Shown piece after piece: positions 38,509 to 51,448 of a stretch of DNA of 64,000 bases. The DNA comes from Alphaproteobacteria bacterium (GTDB lineage: Bacteria; Pseudomonadota; Alphaproteobacteria; CAAHEQ01; UBA3637), in NCBI GenBank assembly GCA_045635565.1, contig JAZTVX010000021.1, positions 15,078 through 79,077 of the forward strand, given 5' to 3'. Below the pieces are notes generated by a model. It saw only the letters and a list, made by a program, of their open reading frames with translations. It ran no database searches and was not told the DNA's origin. Position numbers and translations under genes: made by a program. The stretch's first letter is position 1, and each line of letters opens with the position of its first letter.

Positions 38509-38585
38509 GGGTGTATAGCTCAGTTGGTTAGAGCGTTACGTTCACATCGTAAAGGTCGTCGGTTCGAATCCAACTACACCCACCA
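38509..38585 (+). tRNA. tRNA-Val (anticodon CAC)
   Basis: Acceptor GGGTGTA/TACACCC, anticodon stem TTACG/CGTAA with loop TTCACAT, T-loop TTCGAAT, encoded CCA. Confidence 0.85.
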
Positions 38586-39452: not shown

Positions 39453-40316
39453 ATGAATTTTAATATGAAAGAAAATTTAATGTTAGAACAAACAACCAAA
39501 CAATCAGAGTCTAAAAAAATAAATTTAGAATTAAAAGCAACTTTACGTCGATTATCTTTGAAACACCGACAAACCTTAATGAATACAATTGTAGAACAAC
39601 AAGAAGATGGGGTTTTTTGTATAGAACAATTATTGACTAATTTATTAACATCTGCAATTTTGATATCACCAATTAAACCGGCTGTTGTAAGAGCTAACAT
39701 GATGAAAGAGCCAGCACAACAATTATGTTGTCTTGCTGACTATGATGTGAATGTTAATTTAAATTTACTACCGATTAAAGATGCTGATTATCCGTTGTAT
39801 TTGGAATGTTGGAATGGTAAAACGCAGGAAGTTGTTGATTTAATTCATCGATATGCAACAATTTTATATTCTTTAAAGAAAGATGACCTTATTTCATTTG
39901 CCCAAGAAGTGTGTTTGCCGGATACCGAAGAAGAAAAGGTCCAAAAAGAAACTCGATACAAAGAACTTGAACAGAAAGCATTGTCTTTGCATCGTTCAGA
40001 ATACGACAATAATCCAAGTTATAAAGCAATGTTTGATATGTTTTATGAGGACGAAAAAACAGAAAAAGAAGTATGTTGTGTCGGGTTTAGAGGTGTTACA
40101 AACATTACACCTTATGATTTTGAACCTCCTAAAAAAACGGGAGCGAAAATTATTGGGGCTTTATTGGCTGTTAGTGCTGTTGCGACAGGTGTTTATTGTT
40201 TGACACAAAACACAGATGATAATGCATCTGAACAAGTGGTACCCCAGATGCAAAAAATTATGGAACAAAAACCTGTGGTTCAACCAACCAATAGTCGTGG
40301 TGCTAAAACAATGTGA
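39453..40316 (+). CDS. Hypothetical protein with a near-C-terminal TM helix and a tail related to the shared SRGAR tail family
   Basis: It ends ...AKIIGALLAVSAVATGVYCL...VPQMQKIMEQKPVVQPTNSRGAKTM. Compare VPQIQKITDQKKMLPQDTSRGAREN in the 52328 gene. Confidence 0.45.
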   Translation: MNFNMKENLMLEQTTKQSESKKINLELKATLRRLSLKHRQTLMNTIVEQQEDGVFCIEQLLTNLLTSAILISPIKPAVVRANMMKEPAQQLCCLADYDVNVNLNLLPIKDADYPLYLECWNGKTQEVVDLIHRYATILYSLKKDDLISFAQEVCLPDTEEEKVQKETRYKELEQKALSLHRSEYDNNPSYKAMFDMFYEDEKTEKEVCCVGFRGVTNITPYDFEPPKKTGAKIIGALLAVSAVATGVYCLTQNTDDNASEQVVPQMQKIMEQKPVVQPTNSRGAKTM

Positions 40317-41482: not shown

Positions 41483-41875
41483 TTATCCTCGTTGTCTGGA
41501 TTCTTTCCTTTTTTTATTCAAATAAGCGTTAGCAGTTGAGGATTTTCCTGCTTGATTTAATCTGTTTGCTACATAAGATTGTTCATATGCTTCCCCATTA
41601 AAAATAAAATTACCGACTGTTCTTGCTTGTTTGATGATTGGCATATCTTTAAATGAAGATTTATTATCACAAAATTCTGAAATCGTTTTAGATGCTCTTG
41701 CACACATCATTTCAGCATCATCTTTTAATAGGATTTTTTTACCTAATTTTTGTTCGGCATGTTTTTTACCACTTTCAATGCCAATACTATCCAGTTCAGC
41801 CAAAAGTCGTGCTTCATAAACTTTGGGTCTAAATATCGCACAAAATGTATCTTCTATATATTTAAATATATTCAT
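41483..41875 (-). CDS. Hypothetical protein. An intact paralog of the pseudogene at 52798-53185.
   Basis: 130 aa. About 60% identical over about 110 aa to the interrupted reading frame at 52812-53185. Confidence 0.4.
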   Translation of the reverse strand: MNIFKYIEDTFCAIFRPKVYEARLLAELDSIGIESGKKHAEQKLGKKILLKDDAEMMCARASKTISEFCDNKSSFKDMPIIKQARTVGNFIFNGEAYEQSYVANRLNQAGKSSTANAYLNKKRKESRQRG

Positions 41876-41892: not shown

Positions 41893-43239
41893 TTATTCAC
41901 TTCTTGCACCCCGACCTTCATCTTTGGGTTTAATATTGGTATTTTGATGACTAATTAGAGTAGGGAAGGTAATTGTCAAATTATCAGATGTTGCTTCCGT
42001 GTTGGTCGATATAGAAAAATAAAAAGGTTGTTGATTGGAATATGCTGGCTTTCTTGTTATTTCTTGACATTTTTGTTCTTCTTGAAACACCTCTTTGAAT
42101 GTACGTGTAATCATATTTCTAACGACTAAAGGCAAATCATTATTGATTGATGATTTTGCTTTTTTCCAATCAATTTTTGATTTTTCATCTTCTGATAATG
42201 TTTTCATGATATAATTAAAAGCGTTTTTGTCTCTTTGTAGAAATGTGCACCCTAATATTTCTTCAATTGTGAACATGTTTAAATTTTTAGAAAAAATAGG
42301 ACATTTTTTTTGATAGAGATGAAACATTGCAAACGGGTGCAATTCTTGAATGGATATACTAGCCATTATGGCTCTTTCTTCTTGAGTGGCTTTTTCATAA
42401 ACCATATCAATAATGTTTTTGTTGCATGTTAAAAGTGCCTCTTTTAAAGGATAGCTATACTTATTAGGTTGAAAGGTTGCGCCTGCATCTAACAAAAGTT
42501 TCACCATTTTTTCATCTTGATGAACAATTGCATAACTTAAAGACGAATTCCCTGCCCAAAACATTTCTTTTCCCCACGTACTGTCTTTATTTTTTTCTTG
42601 AGCAATATTTAAAATTCTTTTAACCAGAATTTCATTTTTGTTTCGAACAGATATTGATAAAAACTCAGATGTACCAAGATTGTTCATAATTTCAGCCCCA
42701 TGTTCAAGAAGCAAAAGAGCCGTTTCGGTGTGATTATGATAAACCGCAGCACGCAAAGCGGGGCTTTCTTTATCACGTTCAAAAAAGGAGGGGTTAATTT
42801 TTGCCCCTTTTTTAATCAACATCGCCACAATTTCTGTTTGTCCAAAAGTAGAAGCCACCACTAAAAGGCTTTTATTATCCCCTGTTTTTTTATTCGGGTT
42901 TAAACCGTTTTGCAAAGCGTGTGCCACTTTTTCAACCAATCCCTCTTTAACCCATTCAAAAGATTGAAAATCTTCATATTTTTTTAAATAAGACGTAATT
43001 TTTTTAACGTTTCCAGACAAAATAGCATCTTTAAAGCGATATTCATCTTTTCCTGAAAAAAACTCCAAATCAATTTTTTTGTTTAAATTGATGAAATAAT
43101 TGAAAATTTCAATAGTTTTCTTTTCAGTCGGATATAAAAAAACACTTTCTCGTTCATATTTTTCAATCATTTCTTTCAGTTTTGAATAATCCCCTGTTTT
43201 AAAGGCATTTTCAAAAAGTTCATTAAAGACAGTATTCAT
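41893..43239 (-). CDS. Ankyrin-repeat protein with a shared-type C-terminal tail (…DEGRGARSE)
   Basis: ANK repeats, for example KSLLVVASTFGQTEIVAMLIKKGAKINP and PALRAAVYHNHTETALLLLEHGAEI. 448 aa. Confidence 0.7.
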   Translation of the reverse strand: MNTVFNELFENAFKTGDYSKLKEMIEKYERESVFLYPTEKKTIEIFNYFINLNKKIDLEFFSGKDEYRFKDAILSGNVKKITSYLKKYEDFQSFEWVKEGLVEKVAHALQNGLNPNKKTGDNKSLLVVASTFGQTEIVAMLIKKGAKINPSFFERDKESPALRAAVYHNHTETALLLLEHGAEIMNNLGTSEFLSISVRNKNEILVKRILNIAQEKNKDSTWGKEMFWAGNSSLSYAIVHQDEKMVKLLLDAGATFQPNKYSYPLKEALLTCNKNIIDMVYEKATQEERAIMASISIQELHPFAMFHLYQKKCPIFSKNLNMFTIEEILGCTFLQRDKNAFNYIMKTLSEDEKSKIDWKKAKSSINNDLPLVVRNMITRTFKEVFQEEQKCQEITRKPAYSNQQPFYFSISTNTEATSDNLTITFPTLISHQNTNIKPKDEGRGARSE

Positions 43240-43262: not shown

Positions 43263-44018
43263 CTACTCTGTTCTTGCACCACGGGAAGTGTCTTGTGTTG
43301 GCAATTGCTTTTGGTCTGTTATTTTTTGGACCTGTCTTGGAATATCTACATCATCTCCTTGTATATTTTCATCTGGGTAAGGCGGAATTCTGTCCAAAAG
43401 TGTTTTTTCATAATTTTCAACAGGTTGAACTGTAATATCTTGCACACGAACAATCGGTGTTGGAAATTTTTGTTCTAAATCCTGATCGCTGATTGGCATA
43501 ATGCTTTTTTCTTCAATGGCTTGTCTGATATATGCTCTAACAGTTTGGCTGTGTTTACTCTTTTTGCGTTCAAATTCAAGTATCCCATTTTTCATAGCAT
43601 CCGAATAAGCCAAAGCAACAGGTGTGTATCCCATTTTATTCACTTTTGTTATAGAGGCTCCATTATTCAACAATGCAACAACTAACTCTTCTCCACCTTT
43701 TTGTTGAACAGCCATATGCAAAAGAGTATCCCCATCTATATCTGCTTTTTTAACATCACATGTCTTATTCTGCACTGATTTGATAATATATTTTTCTAAT
43801 TCAGAAGTATATTGAGAATATTTCATAATTCCTATGTATTCCAATGTTTCACAAGCGGTATTGGATTTATTAAGAACGTTGTCTAAGTCTTTATCAAAAT
43901 CTTCTTCAGTATATGGAAGCAATTGTCTGTTAAAAATGGTAGTTGCAATATTCGCAGTTTTTTTTACTAATTGTGAAAGAAAACCTATTTCATCTTTTTT
44001 ACCAGTATTCGTTGTCAT
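43263..44018 (-). CDS. Ankyrin-repeat protein with the conserved C-terminal tail (…PRQVQKITDQKQLPTQDTSRGARTE)
   Basis: ANK repeat DGDTLLHMAVQQKGGEELVVALLNNGASI..GYTPVALAY. The tail is shared at DNA level with the 51781 and 52328 genes. Confidence 0.7.
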   Translation of the reverse strand: MTTNTGKKDEIGFLSQLVKKTANIATTIFNRQLLPYTEEDFDKDLDNVLNKSNTACETLEYIGIMKYSQYTSELEKYIIKSVQNKTCDVKKADIDGDTLLHMAVQQKGGEELVVALLNNGASITKVNKMGYTPVALAYSDAMKNGILEFERKKSKHSQTVRAYIRQAIEEKSIMPISDQDLEQKFPTPIVRVQDITVQPVENYEKTLLDRIPPYPDENIQGDDVDIPRQVQKITDQKQLPTQDTSRGARTE

Positions 44019-44290: not shown

Positions 44291-45484
44291 TTACATATCA
44301 GTGCATACAGCGTATCTTGCCTCATTGTTCAAACCTGTCGGGTTTACATAACCGTTTGAAGGATTGATATGATAACTATAACAATCAGAGTAAGTATCTG
44401 CCATCCACGACCAGTCAGAACCATACGCTTTTTTCATTGCGGCTGTTGGTGCTGATATATTTGTCGTGCTGGATGTTGTTATTCCGATAGTTCTATCGGC
44501 ATGACAATATCCCCATCTGTTTTCACATCCTGTGGGACAGAATTTGTAGGCACATTTGTAATCGGCTACTTTAACAAGACGTTTTCCTAGAGCTGTACAA
44601 AAATGATCAGCACTCCACCAATTCATTGGGATAGATGACATAACAAACGGCGGATTGGATGATTCTTTTGGTGGTTTAAGCGTTGTATTTTTACAAGAAC
44701 CTGTCATACCTTGTGTATCTTTTGTGCATTTATTTCCACCAACATCTGTAATATGACAATACAATCCTCTGTTGCAATCGCTATTACTTTTGCACGTTTC
44801 TGTTTGCATTTCGCATGTTTTTGAAGATGTGAATCTTGTATTTAATTCATTACAATAGCATTGAATAATTTCCCCTGTTTGCGAATTATGCATTGTCTCA
44901 GCTAAACCACCCAACCCATCCGGTGATGTATTTTTAGGACAAATAAGTAATGGTAAAACCTCTGTATTAAAAAATAACATTATTGTGTTATTTTTATCTA
45001 AACAAACTGCATTTTCATCAATAGATACACCATTTAAGAGTTGATAAACAACATATTTTAAAACATTAGATGACATTTGTATGTTTTTGCAAAGTGGCTT
45101 ATTCACATTGGTTAATGATATCCAATAACCAGTTTCTTTTACATGGCATTTTCTTTCTTTTTTGCCGGAATTGCCACAACCATAATCAAACAGATAATTT
45201 CCGGTTATCATTGTACCATTATCGTATGGATCAACTAATGATAATATTTTTTGCTTATCGTAAGATGTTACCAATTCGATCATCAGTTGATGTGATACAT
45301 TATTGATTTCATTTAGCACATTATTTGCATGATATTTATTCATTGCGTACGTATAACCCGCAATACCGATAATAGAAAGTACACCGACAATGGCTAAAAT
45401 ACCTAACATTTCAACCATGCTACGACCTCGTTGTGTTGTCAATGTTTGTAAATTTTCTGTTTTTCGATGCAAGAAATGAATCAT
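44291..45484 (-). CDS. Cysteine-rich secreted protein with a prepilin-like leader. Third paralog. The start is taken at the internal Met. The ORF track extends it to 45580.
   Basis: MIHFLHRKTENLQTLTTQRG|RSMVEMLGILAIVGVL parallels the leader of the 14490 gene. The C-terminal half is Cys-rich (CHITDVGGNKCTKD...CKNTTLK...). Confidence 0.55.
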   Translation of the reverse strand: MIHFLHRKTENLQTLTTQRGRSMVEMLGILAIVGVLSIIGIAGYTYAMNKYHANNVLNEINNVSHQLMIELVTSYDKQKILSLVDPYDNGTMITGNYLFDYGCGNSGKKERKCHVKETGYWISLTNVNKPLCKNIQMSSNVLKYVVYQLLNGVSIDENAVCLDKNNTIMLFFNTEVLPLLICPKNTSPDGLGGLAETMHNSQTGEIIQCYCNELNTRFTSSKTCEMQTETCKSNSDCNRGLYCHITDVGGNKCTKDTQGMTGSCKNTTLKPPKESSNPPFVMSSIPMNWWSADHFCTALGKRLVKVADYKCAYKFCPTGCENRWGYCHADRTIGITTSSTTNISAPTAAMKKAYGSDWSWMADTYSDCYSYHINPSNGYVNPTGLNNEARYAVCTDM

Positions 45485-45605
45485 ACTACCCCCAAATAAA
45501 ACAACGTTTCTTGATAAAAACATTCCATAACAAAATATCCTTTTTGGAGGCATGATATTGGATATTTTGTCTATTGTCAATAAAAAAATAACATCTAAAT
45601 GCCCT

Positions 45606-45783: not shown

Positions 45784-48700
45784 TTATTTTTTCTGGTTAA
45801 TAACCTCTAATACATTATATTCATCGATAATATCGTTGTGATGATTGGTTATATTATTTTGATTCATCAATTCTGTTATATAATCATGGTGGTCTTTTGG
45901 ACCTGGATATATCATTTTATCATTAAGAAGTGAATAATATGCATTTTTGATAAGTGCTCCGATTTCGAATTGAATTTTATTTTCAATACTCGTTCCTTGT
46001 TTTTTCCCGTTAATAAACACATTTTTACTATGTCTGACAACATTTTGATCATTTGTTTTGATAATGTTACTGCTATCTAATGTTAAATGGATTGGTCTTC
46101 TGATTAAAGCCAACTGTGCAGTTGCACTATAATCAAGAGTATCCTTGATATTACCAATAACGATTTTCTTATCTTTTGTTTTGATAATTCCTTTGTCTTT
46201 AATATCACCAGTTATACTAACATTTGGTGTTTGAGTCGTCAAAGAAAGTGTTTCTGTAGTGAGGTCTTTTATTTTCACATCAGTATCAGAAGAAATAACA
46301 ACATCTTTGGATAAAATTTTATTGTAATTTGCTCCATTTCCCGTGTTGTTCAAATGAATAAGATCGCTTGCAATAGCGTTTACGTTGTTTTCATTTGATA
46401 GATCAATTTTTAACGCATTCTCTTTCCCAATTGATTGACTGGCTGTTAATGAAACATTTTTAGCAAAAATATTTGTATCATCAGAAGACAAGCCATTCAA
46501 AATGCTCATGTCAGTTGTAATATCAATATTATTGGAAAAGTCATTTGTAAGCCCTATGATTATTCCCAGATGTAAATCTTGAGATGAGTTAACTGTTAGA
46601 TTATCAACAACACCACTTAAAATGCCATTAGCTTTTAATTCATCAAGTGTTACATCTTTGCCAAAGATATCTAAATCTTCATTAACAAAAACATTGTTTA
46701 GTATTGCATTTGTATGAGTTGTAACAGAAATACTACCCGTTTCTGATATTAAATTGTTAGCCATGATGTTGTTTTTTGCATCAATCATAGCATTACCAAC
46801 AGATATTCCCTCGTTGATATTTAAAACATCTCCAATGCCTTTTATAAATGATTGTTCTGCTTGATATTTCAATCCTTCACCCGCTTTATTTGATGGTGTT
46901 GACACAACCAAGAAACGCTCTCTTGAACCAATGTCTTTACCTTCAACTGTAGTTAATGAAATATTTTTAGCGTTAATATTTACTGTTTCTATTTTTTCAA
47001 ATTTTTCAGAAACATTGCTAATATTTCCTGCAGATACAACTTTAACAGTTCCTAACGCACCTTCGCCGTTATTTGTATCAATCTTATTGATTTTTAATCC
47101 ATTTTGAACATCTTCTGTTCTTAGATAAACATTACTTTCACCTTTAGATAAGATGGTTACCCCTTTGGTTGAAGACAAATTTATTGATGAAGTTTGACTC
47201 CCGACATCACCACTTGCCTTAATTGCAATTTGTTCGCCAGCAATAGAGGAAGCATCAGTTGCATTTTGAACACCTTTATTATTTGTTAAGGTTACATTTT
47301 TAGAGGCTCTAATTGTTCCAATTTTCATATCGTTGTCAGAAACATTTTGGATATTAATACTGTTTAATCCCCCTAGCTTACCATTGTTATATCCAGCAGT
47401 TGCATTTATTGCCCCATTTATATTCACTTCAAGATTTTCGATATTCCCGGCTTCAGATGAAAGAGTTAAATCTTTACCTGCAAATAAGTTATAGTTTTTA
47501 TTTTTATCAGAACTTGCTGTGGCTATAATTCCAAAGGTAGAATTTAATGCTACATTTCCTTCATTTGATTGAATATTGTCGATATACATTGTTGCAATAG
47601 AATCTAAATATATATCATTTTTAGCTTCTATGTTGTAAACACCATTCTTTGCAAATTTTAATGCAGAATCTTTTGTTCCAATTCCACCATTTAATGCTTT
47701 TAAATAAATTTCGCTACCTATGATATGATATGGACTATAAGTTTTGGTGTTGCCGGCAATGATTGAGCCTTCTTTACTTTCTAAAGATATTTTTCCATCA
47801 TTTTCTGATACAATTGAAGATACAACTAAATCGCCTTTATTTGTAATAGAAATGTTGTTTTTAGCTCTGGCTTTTAATTCGTTAACATCAATATCAATAT
47901 TTTCATTTTCAGTTGTATCAAGAAGGATGCTATCAGCTCTTAATTCTAAAGTGTCAGCAAAAATATTTATCTCTTTTCCAATACCATTAAAGTTTTTGTT
48001 AGAGGATGCGAGATAGGCATTGCCACTTGCATTAATGTTAATATTGCTTATCTCTGTATATGGATAATTGATATACACGTCTTTACCACTTGCAGTTAAA
48101 GTTCCATTATTTAAAACTTCAACTTGAATGGCTTTGATTGCAGATCCATTTTCTGTTAATGATTCACCAATATTATTTTGAGTATTTAAAGTAATATTAT
48201 TTGCTGAAATGATAGAATTTGTACCATTCGCTAAAATGCTTCCGTTTGATGTGATATTAACATCACCATGAGCAGCAGAAACGTTGTTGTTTAATAATAT
48301 ATTACCGCTTCCATTAGATGTAATATTAATTTCTGGTTTATCAAATCCTTGAAAGTCAATTGAAATAGAATTGTTTTTAACTTCATAAACCGGATCATAA
48401 TTAACCGTTACGGTTTTATATTGTTTGCCAGTAAATAATTCAACAAGCCATGAACGAGGTTCATAAACTTGATAAGAATATGTTCCACCGGCAGATGTTA
48501 TTGTGTAAGCATCCTTACCGGGAGTATATGTTGTTGAATAAACTTTTGCACCGTCAGCCCTTGCAACAACAGATGTTTCATTACCAAAGAATCCGTTTCC
48601 TTGAGTGTTTCCTGTTGCTGAAGTAATAATTTCACCCTTATTAACATAAACTTCATATTTTCCGGCATTAGAAGATAAAAACTCGTTTGTTAAGTTATCA

Positions 48701-50052
48701 TGAGACAGATTATCAAAAGTATCTCCACCATCTTCTGAAGAAAACTTGAAGTCATTGATTGTTAATTTACCTTGAGTGTTGATATCGGCATTTAATGTAT
48801 TTGTAACCAAATTGTATTTTGAATTATTTATAATATTGATATGTCCGTATCCGTTCAAAAGAACAATTTTACCTGTGTTTGAACTGCTGACAATATTTCC
48901 AGTTAATGTAATATCGCCACCTTCAATATTTGTTTTAAACAAGTGAATATCTCCAGTGACATTTCCTGTTTTAGTTGAGTCGGTTGGTTTAAAATAGGCC
49001 TTGATTTGTTTCAATTGAGATAAATCACTTGTATCATCTGTTAAAGTTAAATAATAGTATTCTTCCCCTGTTTGACTTTTTGTCATTTCGGTTTTAACAC
49101 CATTGATAATCTGATAATATGTATCACCTTCTTTGACAATTGATAGGTCTGGAATGTTAATTTCTTTAATTTCACTTCCGCTTTGAATTAATCCGTTAAC
49201 ATCTATTGTTTTTGCTTCAATATTAATATTTCCAGTTGCAACAATGGCACCATTTTCATTTGCACCGGCAATTTCTATTTCATTTGAAGTATATTGTTGG
49301 TTAAATCCTCCGTTTGGTACTTTTATTTCCAAGTTCTTTGCTTTTAAATTTCCTTCAGATAAAATACTACCAGTATTGTTAATGATAGAAATAGAACCAG
49401 ATGTGTTTTCAACATTGCCTCTTAAAACGATATCACCGGCCTGAGAATTGATGTTAACACTTGGATCATTGGCATTCACATGGTTCACAATGGATATTTT
49501 TGTATCAATGGTTTCATTTACTATATTTTGTGTAATAGAGGAGGGGATACTTGTTCCATAAATACCACCTTTTAACTCTCTATCGATAATCAAATCACCA
49601 TAAATGATGTTATTAGCGCTATAGTTTTGAATATCAATTGTGAAATTATTTCCAGGGGCTGTAATTGAACCTGATCCTGTGATATTCCCCGTTAAATTGA
49701 CTTCACCTGATCTGATAATAATATCATCTACAACCATCGAATATATAGAAGTATCAGAGGAGGCATTTTCTTCTTGTCTGTGTTGTAGTTCCTCTATTTT
49801 TGCCTGCAAATCTTTAATGTCATCAGTATATTTTTCTCTGGTTTCTTCTAATATAGCATTTATTTGATTGATATTATTTTCGGCAGAAGACATTGTGCTT
49901 TTATAAGTTTCAATTGCTATATTATTTTCATTTATTTGTATTGTATCTTGAGCTATTTGTTTGGTTAAAGATTCTTGTTTTGTTATTACAGCAAATAAGG
50001 CATCAGAGTAAGCTTGACTGTTTTTGCCTCCAGTATTATATGCATCAATCAT
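45784..50052 (-). CDS. Giant (1422 aa) beta-helical repeat protein. FHA/adhesin-like Asn/Gly/Ile-rich repeats. It has no signal peptide and no TPS domain.
   Basis: N-terminal coiled coil, then repeats such as GNITGSGSITAPGNNFTIDIQ and GDIVLRGNVENTSGSISIINNTGSILSEGNLKAKNLEIK. Confidence 0.6.
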   Translation of the reverse strand: MIDAYNTGGKNSQAYSDALFAVITKQESLTKQIAQDTIQINENNIAIETYKSTMSSAENNINQINAILEETREKYTDDIKDLQAKIEELQHRQEENASSDTSIYSMVVDDIIIRSGEVNLTGNITGSGSITAPGNNFTIDIQNYSANNIIYGDLIIDRELKGGIYGTSIPSSITQNIVNETIDTKISIVNHVNANDPSVNINSQAGDIVLRGNVENTSGSISIINNTGSILSEGNLKAKNLEIKVPNGGFNQQYTSNEIEIAGANENGAIVATGNINIEAKTIDVNGLIQSGSEIKEINIPDLSIVKEGDTYYQIINGVKTEMTKSQTGEEYYYLTLTDDTSDLSQLKQIKAYFKPTDSTKTGNVTGDIHLFKTNIEGGDITLTGNIVSSSNTGKIVLLNGYGHINIINNSKYNLVTNTLNADINTQGKLTINDFKFSSEDGGDTFDNLSHDNLTNEFLSSNAGKYEVYVNKGEIITSATGNTQGNGFFGNETSVVARADGAKVYSTTYTPGKDAYTITSAGGTYSYQVYEPRSWLVELFTGKQYKTVTVNYDPVYEVKNNSISIDFQGFDKPEINITSNGSGNILLNNNVSAAHGDVNITSNGSILANGTNSIISANNITLNTQNNIGESLTENGSAIKAIQVEVLNNGTLTASGKDVYINYPYTEISNININASGNAYLASSNKNFNGIGKEINIFADTLELRADSILLDTTENENIDIDVNELKARAKNNISITNKGDLVVSSIVSENDGKISLESKEGSIIAGNTKTYSPYHIIGSEIYLKALNGGIGTKDSALKFAKNGVYNIEAKNDIYLDSIATMYIDNIQSNEGNVALNSTFGIIATASSDKNKNYNLFAGKDLTLSSEAGNIENLEVNINGAINATAGYNNGKLGGLNSINIQNVSDNDMKIGTIRASKNVTLTNNKGVQNATDASSIAGEQIAIKASGDVGSQTSSINLSSTKGVTILSKGESNVYLRTEDVQNGLKINKIDTNNGEGALGTVKVVSAGNISNVSEKFEKIETVNINAKNISLTTVEGKDIGSRERFLVVSTPSNKAGEGLKYQAEQSFIKGIGDVLNINEGISVGNAMIDAKNNIMANNLISETGSISVTTHTNAILNNVFVNEDLDIFGKDVTLDELKANGILSGVVDNLTVNSSQDLHLGIIIGLTNDFSNNIDITTDMSILNGLSSDDTNIFAKNVSLTASQSIGKENALKIDLSNENNVNAIASDLIHLNNTGNGANYNKILSKDVVISSDTDVKIKDLTTETLSLTTQTPNVSITGDIKDKGIIKTKDKKIVIGNIKDTLDYSATAQLALIRRPIHLTLDSSNIIKTNDQNVVRHSKNVFINGKKQGTSIENKIQFEIGALIKNAYYSLLNDKMIYPGPKDHHDYITELMNQNNITNHHNDIIDEYNVLEVINQKK

Positions 50053-51225
50053 AGTTTTGAGTACGGTGATTTATTTAATCTCAACACGTTAAGAAAAGAT
50101 TTAAATACTTTTAATCGGAATGCGCGTTCTGTTAAAATGAGAGCAGAATTAAAACCGGGTGAAAAGTATGGAACAACAGATGTTAAAATGGTTGCTGAAG
50201 AAAGTTTTCCATATCATTTATCTACTTCATTTGATAACTTTGGCAGGGATACAACTGGAGAGCATAGGGGAGGGTTGGTCGCTTCTTCAGATTCATTGAT
50301 TGGATTTCAAGATAGGTTATCAGTAGCATTCAATATGTCTCGTTCATCTTCTAATCCTTATGTTGATTATAGTATACCAATTAACCATAGTGGAACAAGA
50401 ATGGGGATTTCATATATGTATGGTAAAAGCGAAATCAGTTTAGATAATAATGCTGATTTTGATTTAACAGCAAAATCAAGAACGCTTAGTGGGTATTTAA
50501 CGCACCCGCTTATTGATACTTCAAAAGGGAAATTAAATCTTAATACCTCTGTTAACGCAAAAAATTCACATGCAGATATTTCGGATATTACCTATTCCAA
50601 ATATAAAGGCCGGTCTGTTGCTGTTGGATTTGGTGGTAATTATAACTTTAATAACAGTATGTTATATGCTTCATCATATTTGACTTCCGGGGTTATTGAA
50701 GATCATATAAAAGATAAGAAACATAGTTTTAGCAAAGTGAATGCTGATTTATATTATATACATTATTTGCCTTCCAGTATTGTTGGAACTTTTAAGGCTG
50801 GTGGGCAGTATTCACCTGACAATATGGCCTATCTTGAACAATATCAAATTGGCGGAATTTCAAGTATCAGAGGATATTCAGAAGGTTTGTTGATGGGAGC
50901 AAGTGCTTATTATACCAACCTTGAAATGTTATTCCCAATACCATTTCTACCTAAAACAATCAATGTTCCTTGCAAAAAAGATGAAACATTCCACTTAAAA
51001 GATTCAGTAAAATTTGCTACTTTTGTTGATCATGGGGCTGTCTTTCATCATGATAGACCAACAGAAAAAGAAAACTTTTTGTTAAGTGCAGGTGTTGGCT
51101 TAAGATTTGCTTTAAGCAAATATATTTCTGCCAGATTTTATGTCGGATTCCCATTGATGAACAAAAAAACATATCGAGAATCTGATGCTGCCTTTCATTT
51201 TGATATAATTGCTGTTCCTTTTTAA
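50014..51225 (+). CDS. TpsB (ShlB/FhaC)-family outer-membrane transporter. Apparently 5'-truncated: no signal peptide and no first POTRA domain.
   Basis: POTRA2-like LRKDLNTFNRNARSVKMRAELKPGEKYGTTDVKMVAEESFPYHLSTSFDNFGRDTTGEHRGG. The Omp85/TpsB L6 motif is present as ISSIRGY. C-terminal beta-strand ends in Phe. Confidence 0.55.
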   Translation: MTVFASSIICINHSFEYGDLFNLNTLRKDLNTFNRNARSVKMRAELKPGEKYGTTDVKMVAEESFPYHLSTSFDNFGRDTTGEHRGGLVASSDSLIGFQDRLSVAFNMSRSSSNPYVDYSIPINHSGTRMGISYMYGKSEISLDNNADFDLTAKSRTLSGYLTHPLIDTSKGKLNLNTSVNAKNSHADISDITYSKYKGRSVAVGFGGNYNFNNSMLYASSYLTSGVIEDHIKDKKHSFSKVNADLYYIHYLPSSIVGTFKAGGQYSPDNMAYLEQYQIGGISSIRGYSEGLLMGASAYYTNLEMLFPIPFLPKTINVPCKKDETFHLKDSVKFATFVDHGAVFHHDRPTEKENFLLSAGVGLRFALSKYISARFYVGFPLMNKKTYRESDAAFHFDIIAVPF

Positions 51226-51448
51226 GACAAATTAAAGAAATGAGAGACAGTTAAGGTATAGAGAATATTATAGTTGATAAGATTGTTATGAAACAGATAA
51301 AAGAACACCTAAAGAATAATTAAAAAATTAGAATGAGTAAAATGATATTTGAAAAACACATTAAAACACAATAATCCTTGTAAGATACCCCAAAATGTGC
51401 TATTGCTATGGATTGAGTATATTTGAATGAAATGAAAGGAAAATTATC

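Follow-up and report, generated by a model that had tools for sequence, protein, structure and literature searches.

Probable remnant of an LktA-like two-partner secretion locus in an uncultured gut or rumen alphaproteobacterium

In the genome of an uncultured gut or rumen alphaproteobacterium, two long open reading frames (ORFs) meet head-to-head: mechanical ORF calling gives 1422 aa on the minus strand (45784..50052) and 403 aa on the plus strand (50014..51225), with ends overlapping by 39 nt. The initial annotation of this DNA, whose two ORFs and mechanical overlap we recovered exactly, had read them as a two-partner secretion pair in which both products miss their export determinants. Are these secreted proteins of an unusual kind or pieces of genes? 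We addressed this question in a window of 64 kb (the whole stretch of DNA analysed), which is part of a contig measuring at least 103 kb from a metagenome-assembled lineage. We found that the front ends of two back-to-back genes are gone, namely tpsA, for a giant secreted surface protein, and tpsB, for an outer-membrane exporter. Region 45784-51225 is very probably what remains of a two-partner (type Vb) secretion system for an LktA-like filamentous adhesin, both of whose genes were truncated by a single deletion of about 10.6 kb.

Table 1. Coordinates of the features discussed (window numbering)
Feature	Position	Strand	Description
tpsA 3' remnant	45784..50070	-	1422-aa ORF (45784-50052) plus six homologous codons (ITVLKT) ahead of a chance ATG
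Spurious 5' extension of the 403-aa ORF	50014..50062	+	Antisense of the tpsA remnant, not derived from tpsB
Proposed deletion junction	50063..50070		8 nt ACGGTGAT that fit both tpsB (+, codons D-G-D) and tpsA (-, codons I-T-V)
tpsB 3' remnant	50063..51225	+	Starts at the second base of codon 192 (numbering of the 578-aa allele) and ends with the stop; C-terminal part of POTRA2 and complete ShlB/Omp85 barrel with IRGY
Strain-level indel	51279..51369		L032 carries 1.8 kb more here (L032 2138-3923; blastn, boundary sequences)
Small-gene array	51370..53440	+	Common to the window and L032, 97% identity

Two gene fragments

The plus-strand fragment corresponds to the 3' two-thirds of tpsB. Its product matches the Pfam ShlB model over its entire length (PF03865, E 2.5e-34, model positions 1-311 of 311) as well as PF01103 (E 1.7e-14), and the L6-loop motif (V/I)RG(Y/F) is present as IRGY at residue 268 of the remnant. 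Two intact alleles of 578 and 588 aa (P0006 and P0127, on L026 and L032) possess POTRA_2, POTRA and ShlB domains; in the 578-aa allele, Pfam places POTRA_2 at 92-165, POTRA at 167-210 and the barrel from 228, and the break falls at residue 192. No POTRA domain, POTRA_2 included, was matched by Pfam in the window's tpsB product. As for a signal peptide, the N-terminus is missing in the alignment and no hydrophobic segment occurs within residues 1-60 of the called product. Thus, the barrel with IRGY and the N-terminal losses described initially are both real, while only the C-terminal part of the reported POTRA2 is there. The remnant is 99.3% identical to the intact alleles (L026, L032) at the nucleotide level and 100% at the protein level, its five substitutions being all synonymous (5/5), and shares 69% identity with residues 207-593 of the L002 TpsB. 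It is by descent an incomplete member of the TpsB family, from which the source record calls a 362-aa product starting at an ATG at 50137. A 415-aa sequence (P0007), considered as a second truncated TpsB allele, was rejected, a scaffold run of N having made it.

The minus-strand fragment represents about the last 1,428 of the roughly 4,700 codons of an intact tpsA, i.e. its final ~30%. In tblastn searches, the 1422-aa product showed passenger homology to TPS-domain-bearing, tpsB-adjacent proteins, with 37-47% identity (E = 0) to the C-terminal regions encoded by giant genes next to tpsB (L001, L002, L006-L011, L024, L025). In L002 the similarity is split over two ORFs, residues 1-166 aligning with the C-terminal region of an upstream giant ORF and all later residues with the ORF that follows it. 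In eight relatives the homology starts at 'ITVLKT M', and the ATG of the 1422-aa ORF is an internal position occupied by W or L in the homologues. An in-frame TAA lies at 50073-50071. The frame remains open over 4.3 kb, in a genome with a G+C content of 31%.

The 1422-aa product is indeed devoid of a signal peptide and of a TPS domain, as initially noted: neither Pfam nor NCBIfam gave a TPS match, and the NPNG and FxxPxG motifs and a hydrophobic N-terminal segment are all absent. The hemagglutinin-like repeats attributed to it fail at the sequence level, self-BLASTP detecting no repeats and Pfam no haemagglutinin repeats. For residues 560-1160, AlphaFold gives an all-beta model of high confidence (pLDDT 88), and a Foldseek search with this model returned non-significant matches only, mostly to beta-solenoids with the TpsA adhesin EtpA on top. 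We found in the remnant no VENN, VDNN, ELYN or NEALV pretoxin motif and no toxin domain in Pfam, and no immunity gene is evident with it. Its C-terminal 320 residues show 35-39% conservation with relatives, versus 43-47% in the rest of the protein; this conservation is close to that of the remaining protein and therefore not that of a hypervariable toxin tip. A promoter and terminator scan gave nothing exceeding shuffled expectation (28 promoter-like sites found versus 37 expected). Singleton departures from otherwise invariant columns, counted as a measure of relaxed selection, amount to 72 in the window, 115 in P0004 and 38 in L006; these counts are confounded by phylogenetic distance and hence uninformative. 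A query with the N-terminal 246 residues of the remnant had zero matches and missed the query protein itself, making it uninformative, and no contig was retrieved by a look-up of the exact 1422-aa product.

Native arrangement and junction

What the locus looks like when intact can be seen in L032, the orthologous locus of the same species. It is 99.3% identical to the window over 50063-51278 and 97% over 51370-53440, and the orthology follows from this common downstream gene array. Here tpsB is intact and tpsA starts 202 nt upstream of the tpsB ATG, on the opposite strand; the first 112 nt of L032 encode, on the minus strand, the TpsA N-terminus MKYSRTTITQLSKWYKQIL..., and tpsA is visible for these 112 nt only, as the contig ends there. 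The same divergent layout is found in L004, L005, L028-L031 and L012-L023. The close relatives L004, L005 (JAZLCE010000012.1) and L028 (ERZ27256955 k141_1340796) hold intact tpsA and tpsB genes head-to-head about 200 nt apart; in L028, the tpsA called is 4,699 aa long and the spacer measures 200 nt. Head-to-head geometry is thus native to these genes, and the synteny comparison proposed at the outset, looking for an intact pair, finds one in relatives of the same layout.

At the N-terminus, the relatives' TpsA proteins have both a signal peptide and a TPS domain of the LktA type. The TPS domain was found in L001, L004 and L028, with 117 bits for NCBIfam NF012204 (adhes_FxxPxG, 'leukotoxin LktA family filamentous adhesin'; cutoff 60), 38 bits for TIGR01901 (cutoff 29.1) and 40-46 bits for Pfam TPS (cutoff 33.5). 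In part of the wider family (L002, L006-L011) the genes are co-directional, in the order tpsA-tpsB-ompH. As a side observation, this family of very large (4,700-5,200 aa) LktA-type TpsA proteins, with its two gene orders, is common to uncultured gut Alphaproteobacteria and Gastranaerophilales-labelled MAGs; we know of no activity for any of its members.

In base-level alignments, identity to tpsB begins at 50063 in five orthologues (L026, L003, L004, L005, L027), and left of this position there is no similarity to any of the tpsB orthologues aligned. From the other side, tpsA protein homology extends to 50070. The 8 nt that fit both genes are a putative microhomology, estimated at up to 8 nt. 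The 39-nt antisense overlap is mechanical, not a real gene overlap: it is an ORF-calling artefact, because the 403-aa ORF was extended into antisense tpsA sequence, and the genes have at most 8 nt in common. The tpsA side was compared over 10-kb flanks, in which L028 ends ~38 codons and L004 ~230 codons short of the junction. As L028 is the closest locus, the deletion size, taken from the 4,699-aa relative, and the microhomology are estimates, and the tpsA-side breakpoint would lie within the interval given in Table 1. The junction is known from one assembled contig; its 30-mer and a tpsA-side 24-mer had zero matches in the JGI metagenome contigs, the one collection searched.

Beyond tpsB, the window differs from L032 by a second strain-level indel, where the extra 1.8 kb of L032 holds a 341-aa prepilin-like gene on the minus strand. 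The region is therefore structurally variable, and more than one event may have been involved at this locus. Long inverted repeats flank the region (41.6-44.1 kb versus 51.6-53.0 kb) and correspond to paralogous small genes; they were rejected as mediators of a rearrangement, as none reaches the junction.

A proposed deletion and its alternatives

In the intact state, tpsA (about 4,700 codons, minus strand) and tpsB (578-588 codons, plus strand) would diverge from a spacer ~200 nt long. In this layout, a single deletion of about 10.6 kb would have removed the first ~3,270 codons of tpsA, with the signal peptide, TPS domain and the larger share of the passenger; the entire spacer, presumably with both promoters; and the first ~191-201 codons of tpsB, with the signal peptide, linker, POTRA1 and the beginning of POTRA2. 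The ends would then have been rejoined at 50063-50070, probably via short microhomology. Intact head-to-head relatives minus their middle give the state of the window, and the breakpoint initially supposed to have truncated both genes is supported as a deletion. Of the initial proposal, an inversion or deletion near 50030, the deletion is retained, the inversion is not, and the position moves to 50063-50070.

Both remnants are predicted to be non-functional, the TpsA piece because it has neither a Sec signal nor the TPS domain needed for recognition by the transporter, and the TpsB piece because it has neither a Sec signal nor the substrate-binding POTRA domains. Expression of both has presumably been lost. 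The loss is recent, because both remnants are free of disabling mutations (0 stop codons or frameshifts) and the tpsB differences are synonymous only; the description of a decaying system does not fit, no decay being visible. We regard the event as ordinary, recent gene loss.

A false join of mid-tpsA to mid-tpsB in the assembly, the organism holding an intact locus like that of L032, appears unlikely. The window does come from a metagenome-assembled lineage, assemblies are often interrupted at giant genes (the contigs of L026, L029-L031 and L032 stop in or beside tpsA), an intact allele exists at 99.3% identity, no second contig with the junction was found, and undamaged fragments are also expected from a false join. 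However, the two sides have at most 8 nt in common at the junction and none left of 50063, when a jump in a k-mer graph needs far more, and the sequence contains no run of N such as scaffolding leaves. The order and orientation kept are exactly what a simple deletion would leave of the native arrangement. Moreover, L032 also differs from the window elsewhere (five SNPs, 3% downstream divergence, the 1.8-kb indel), and these further differences indicate another strain rather than the same DNA assembled otherwise. The junction is thus presumably present in the cells as well as in the assembly.

We consider it improbable that an inversion or translocation left the missing halves joined together elsewhere in the genome. 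While the inspection covered 64 kb of a contig that is 103 kb or longer, and an inversion starting from the co-directional tpsA-tpsB-ompH order could yield a head-to-head junction, the divergent order already exists in the same species and in the nearest relatives, so that a plain deletion suffices. Such an inversion also predicts the 5' part of tpsB directly downstream of the tpsA remnant; a 429-aa ORF for a prepilin-like protein (44291-45580) sits there, and neither the tpsB nor the tpsA 5' part was found in the 64-kb window at the DNA or protein level. An inversion from a co-directional ancestor was rejected on these grounds.

That the fragments function as they stand, as a stand-alone 1422-aa protein with another export or as a silent tpsA recombination cassette of the Neisseria tpsC or orphan cdiA-CT type, is very improbable. 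The long open frame speaks in its favour, but the recent origin of the fragment accounts for it well enough. The alternative export route initially envisaged for the giant protein meets an ORF that starts mid-protein, the tpsA homology running six codons further to the junction; there is no hydrophobic N-terminus, and promoter-like sites are no commoner than chance would give. Nor does the window hold an intact tpsA, a VENN-type pretoxin motif or a C-terminus variable enough for a toxin tip. We would give little credit to a more speculative role, in which the tpsA remnant is kept as a silent donor for a full-length tpsA elsewhere or, more modestly, intact and deleted alleles coexist in natural populations as a surface protein of ~4,700 aa is repeatedly shed under selection (e.g. 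host immunity, phage).

We thus retain the recent deletion, whose importance beyond annotation is small. The annotated 1422-aa and 362/403-aa 'proteins' are ORF calls on gene fragments, and should be annotated as pseudogene fragments belonging to a single two-partner secretion locus. This avoids reading them as a signal-less giant adhesin with an unexplained export route and a POTRA-less transporter. The presence of the system varies among strains of one species, which may bear on strain-level surface variation in gut communities; this presence/absence and the large LktA-type TpsA family are modestly useful side results.

Comparison with known systems

LktA of Fusobacterium necrophorum is a protein of about 3,200 aa. 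The tpsC cassettes of Neisseria, like orphan cdiA-CT modules, follow downstream of an intact tpsA, share its orientation and come paired with immunity genes. The window's tpsA fragment resembles these cassettes as a tpsA gene devoid of its 5' end, and so of a signal peptide and a TPS domain; it differs in abutting a truncated tpsB at a deletion junction with no intact tpsA nearby, and no second tpsA-like sequence lies beside it in the 64-kb window. Concerning contact-dependent inhibition (CdiA/CdiB/CdiI), the solved structures nearest in sequence to the intact TpsB allele are those of CdiB (PDB 6WIM and 6WIL, E 5e-18), but there is no sign of such a system in the window, because a VENN pretoxin motif, a hypervariable C-terminal tip and an evident immunity gene are all absent.

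In two-partner secretion, the N-terminal TPS domain of a Sec-dependent TpsA is recognised by the POTRA domains of TpsB, a 16-stranded Omp85-type barrel with the L6 motif (V/I)RGY (PMC5422565). Compared with FhaB/FhaC of Bordetella and ShlA/ShlB of Serratia, to which the window genes are similar in sequence at the level of Pfam domains only, the window keeps the barrel and IRGY but has lost both recognition modules and both signal peptides. There is also a likeness in kind to LktA/LktB: intact relatives of the window's tpsA share the FxxPxG-type TPS domain (NF012204), and their very large exoproteins are encoded beside a ShlB/FhaC-type transporter. They differ from it by their larger size of about 4,700-5,200 aa and by a gene order that is divergent or tpsA-tpsB-ompH, and the copy in the window differs further in being wholly devoid of the TPS domain.

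The open reading frames and their relatives

As initially annotated, two open reading frames overlap by 39 nt in this region of ~31% G+C (Table). The + strand product covers the whole Pfam ShlB barrel model (E 2.5e-34), also matches the Omp85 model and carries the IRGY motif; no POTRA domain was detected in it with Pfam. The 1422-aa product has no significant family in Pfam or NCBIfam and lacks both a TPS motif and a hydrophobic N-terminus. It cannot extend further since an in-frame TAA lies seven codons 5′ of its ATG on the - strand.

A protein search returned only four relatives of the 1422-aa protein, two of which could be placed on contigs, each with a same-strand giant ORF of 3,283 aa or more upstream. 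At one of these loci (L002), the relative is followed by an intact 593-aa TpsB, the outer-membrane transporter, and then by an OmpH gene. By tblastn against the window, residues 1-166 of the window ORF correspond to the C-terminal part of the L002 upstream giant ORF and the remainder to the second ORF. What the window ORF represents is thus the 3′ part of a single, very large gene; this gene is divided into two ORFs in L001 and L002, though not at the same point, and is one uninterrupted frame in L006-L009. The + strand fragment is 69% identical to residues 207-593 of the L002 TpsB. A TPS domain lies at the N-terminus of the giant relatives, where NCBIfam NF012204 ("leukotoxin LktA family filamentous adhesin") scores 117 bits for a cutoff of 60; in L001 and L004, the TIGR01901 and Pfam TPS models also exceed their cutoffs. 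The relatives thus form genuine two-partner secretion pairs, with the giant protein as the exoprotein TpsA.

A conserved, helical, coiled-coil-like stretch of ~90 residues (remnant residues ~20-100) lies in the mostly beta-rich TpsA passenger of all aligned relatives, at ~70% of the full protein length. In several of them (L002, L001, L024), the giant tpsA is interrupted near this same segment; the G8 run in L002 may reflect a sequencing error or act as a slipped-strand switch between on and off states.

The hemagglutinin-like repeats initially attributed to the 1422-aa remnant were not recovered, as self-comparison gave no sequence repeats. AlphaFold modelled residues 100-700 poorly (pLDDT 60) and residues 560-1160 confidently (pLDDT 88, pTM 0.84) as an all-beta structure with many short strands. 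Foldseek found no significant PDB match for either model; among the non-significant hits for residues 560-1160, the TpsA adhesin EtpA came top, followed by other beta-solenoids. The predicted structure is consistent with a possible beta-helical passenger fold.

Coordinates of features in the window and in related loci
Feature	Sequence	Coordinates	Strand	Source
1422-aa ORF	window	45784..50052	-	ORF listing
403-aa ORF (mechanical TTG start)	window	50014..51225	+	ORF listing
Coiled-coil-like stretch	window	49750-50000		
Nucleotides assignable to both tpsA and tpsB (ACGGTGAT)	window	50063-50070		
Gene with common tail	window	39453-40316	+	
Gene with common tail	window	41893-43239	-	
Gene with common tail	window	43263-44018	-	
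Gene with common tail	window	51449-51706	+	
Gene with common tail	window	51781-52224	+	
Gene with common tail	window	52328-52780	+	
429-aa prepilin-like gene	window	44291-45580	-	
130-aa gene	window	41483-41875	-	
Degraded paralogue of 130-aa gene	window	52810-53396	+	
tRNA-Val	window	38509-38585		
tRNA-Ser(tga)	window	53424-53513	-	
tRNA-Ser partial copy	window	53219-53273		
tRNA-Ser partial copy	window	53388-53442		
tRNA-Ser/integrase comparison segment	L032	5945-6853		
tpsA frame change at G8 run (GTGGGGGGGGAAC)	L002	9770-9785		
tpsA stop and frame change	L001	9930-10000		
tpsA in-frame stop	L024	~4590		

Native gene order and the junction

Scanning one genome for each species yielded 23 loci, every one on an uncultured gut or rumen MAG that carries the label Alphaproteobacteria or Gastranaerophilales. 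Mapping reference proteins onto the loci revealed two layouts. The co-directional order tpsA-tpsB-ompH is found in L002, L006-L011, L024 and L025, whose TpsB are 66-70% identical to that of the window. In the divergent layout (L004, L005, L012-L023), tpsA starts on the opposite strand ~200-230 nt from the tpsB start; the nearest relatives of the window among the scanned loci, L004 (85%) and L005 (79%), belong here. L028, a close relative, has the same layout: its TpsB (P0012, 91% identical to the window's) and a tpsA called at 4,699 aa diverge from a 200-nt spacer. The MAGs of L012-L023 (TpsB identity 54-59%) are labelled Gastranaerophilales, Vampirovibrio or Cyanobacteria, and one Muribaculaceae, which suggests horizontal transfer between gut bacteria or else errors in binning or labelling.

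Searching with the TpsB fragment retrieved P0006, a 578-aa protein with POTRA_2, POTRA and ShlB domains that matches all 386 residues of the fragment with 100% identity. Its cluster includes the window's own 362-aa call (P0126) and the 588-aa P0127, encoded on the 10.7-kb contig L032, which contains the P0006 contig (L026) at 100% identity. L032 919-2137 is 99.3% identical to window 50063-51278, with five substitutions, all synonymous, and L032 3924-5985 is 97.0% identical to window 51370-53440, the array of small genes that extends downstream as far as tRNA-Ser. L032 thus comes from a different strain of the same species and carries the orthologous locus. In the opening 112 nt of L032, the - strand codes for MKYSRTTITQLSKWYKQILIKCALFNATIF..., a TpsA N-terminus as in L028 and L004, and this tpsA starts at a distance of 202 nt from the ATG of tpsB. 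A head-to-head arrangement is therefore the native state in this species, and what is peculiar to the window is the missing middle of the locus.

In a base-by-base alignment with five orthologues, tpsB identity begins at 50063 with no match to its left; 50014-50062 of the + strand ORF is antisense of tpsA sequence. On the - strand, protein homology shared with eight tpsA relatives starts at ITVLKT-M (I[DTP][VE][IV][KQ][TK] in the relatives), reaching 50070 and being lost beyond. The ATG at 50052 is a chance start codon, since this position is W or L in relatives. Thus, the 8 nt at 50063-50070 are assignable to both genes and would fit a putative microhomology-mediated deletion; the L028 tpsA sequence reaches to within ~38 codons of the junction.

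The initial annotation had placed a breakpoint truncating both genes near 50030, by inversion or deletion. A deletion is supported, its position being refined to 50063-50070, while an inversion or translocation is very improbable: the divergent native order makes it superfluous, and the window contains none of the products that it predicts. An assembly error joining the middle of tpsA to that of tpsB is a somewhat less remote explanation and still an unlikely one, as the joined sides share at most 8 nt, no N gap marks the junction and a deletion in the native layout would give exactly this geometry. That the 1422-aa ORF is a functional stand-alone protein or a silent cassette is the least credible reading, because tpsA homology runs through and past its start codon, export signal and pretoxin motif are absent, and no intact tpsA lies nearby.

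Flanking genes

Six genes lying in mirror orientation on either side of the TPS remnant have unrelated N-terminal parts (with ankyrin repeats in two) and a common C-terminal tail, "...PQ[VI]QKITDQK..QDTSRGAR.E*", preceded in several by a hydrophobic helix. This tail, conserved at the DNA level too (up to 85% over 59 nt) and limited among the fetched loci to the window and L032, could be a shared signal for secretion or anchoring, or else a recombination module. A 130-aa gene also has a mirror-image paralogue across the TPS locus, degraded (194 nt at 72% identity) and broken into short ORFs. A prepilin-like, Cys-rich 341-aa gene lies just downstream of tpsB in L032 and L026 and is absent from the window (51279-51369 versus L032 2138-3923); a 43% identical, 429-aa paralogue with a prepilin-type N-terminus (GRSMVEMLGILAIVGVLS) is encoded just downstream of the tpsA remnant.

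Within the 3′ end of tRNA-Ser, L032 departs from the window and continues with a phage-type integrase gene. The tRNA-end sequence has a degenerate second copy 170 nt away in the window, and three copies in L003. An integration hotspot at tRNA-Ser appears to border the variable region with the TPS locus, and tRNA-Val may mark the other side of this region.

Extent, age and consequences of the deletion

Depending on the start codon used, tpsB has lost its first 574-604 nt, namely the signal peptide, linker, POTRA1 and first part of POTRA2. The break falls at residue 192 of the intact allele, in which Pfam matches POTRA at 92-165 and 167-210 and the barrel begins at 228. As estimated from L028, tpsA would lack ~3,270 of ~4,700 codons, and the whole deletion would measure ~10.6 kb, 202-nt spacer included. 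The missing parts were not found elsewhere in the 64-kb window at the DNA or protein level, and promoter-like signals did not exceed chance expectation.

Neither remnant contains a stop codon or frameshift, and the tpsB remnant differs from the intact allele only by synonymous changes; the deletion is therefore recent, and the locus, rightly called broken at the outset, as yet shows no visible decay of the kind then proposed. Altogether, an ordinary, recent deletion inactivated a natively divergent LktA-like tpsA/tpsB pair in an uncultured gut alphaproteobacterium. Two-partner secretion depends by definition on Sec to export both partners and on POTRA domains that recognise the TPS domain (PMC5422565), and we therefore infer that the tpsA and tpsB remnants are both non-functional.
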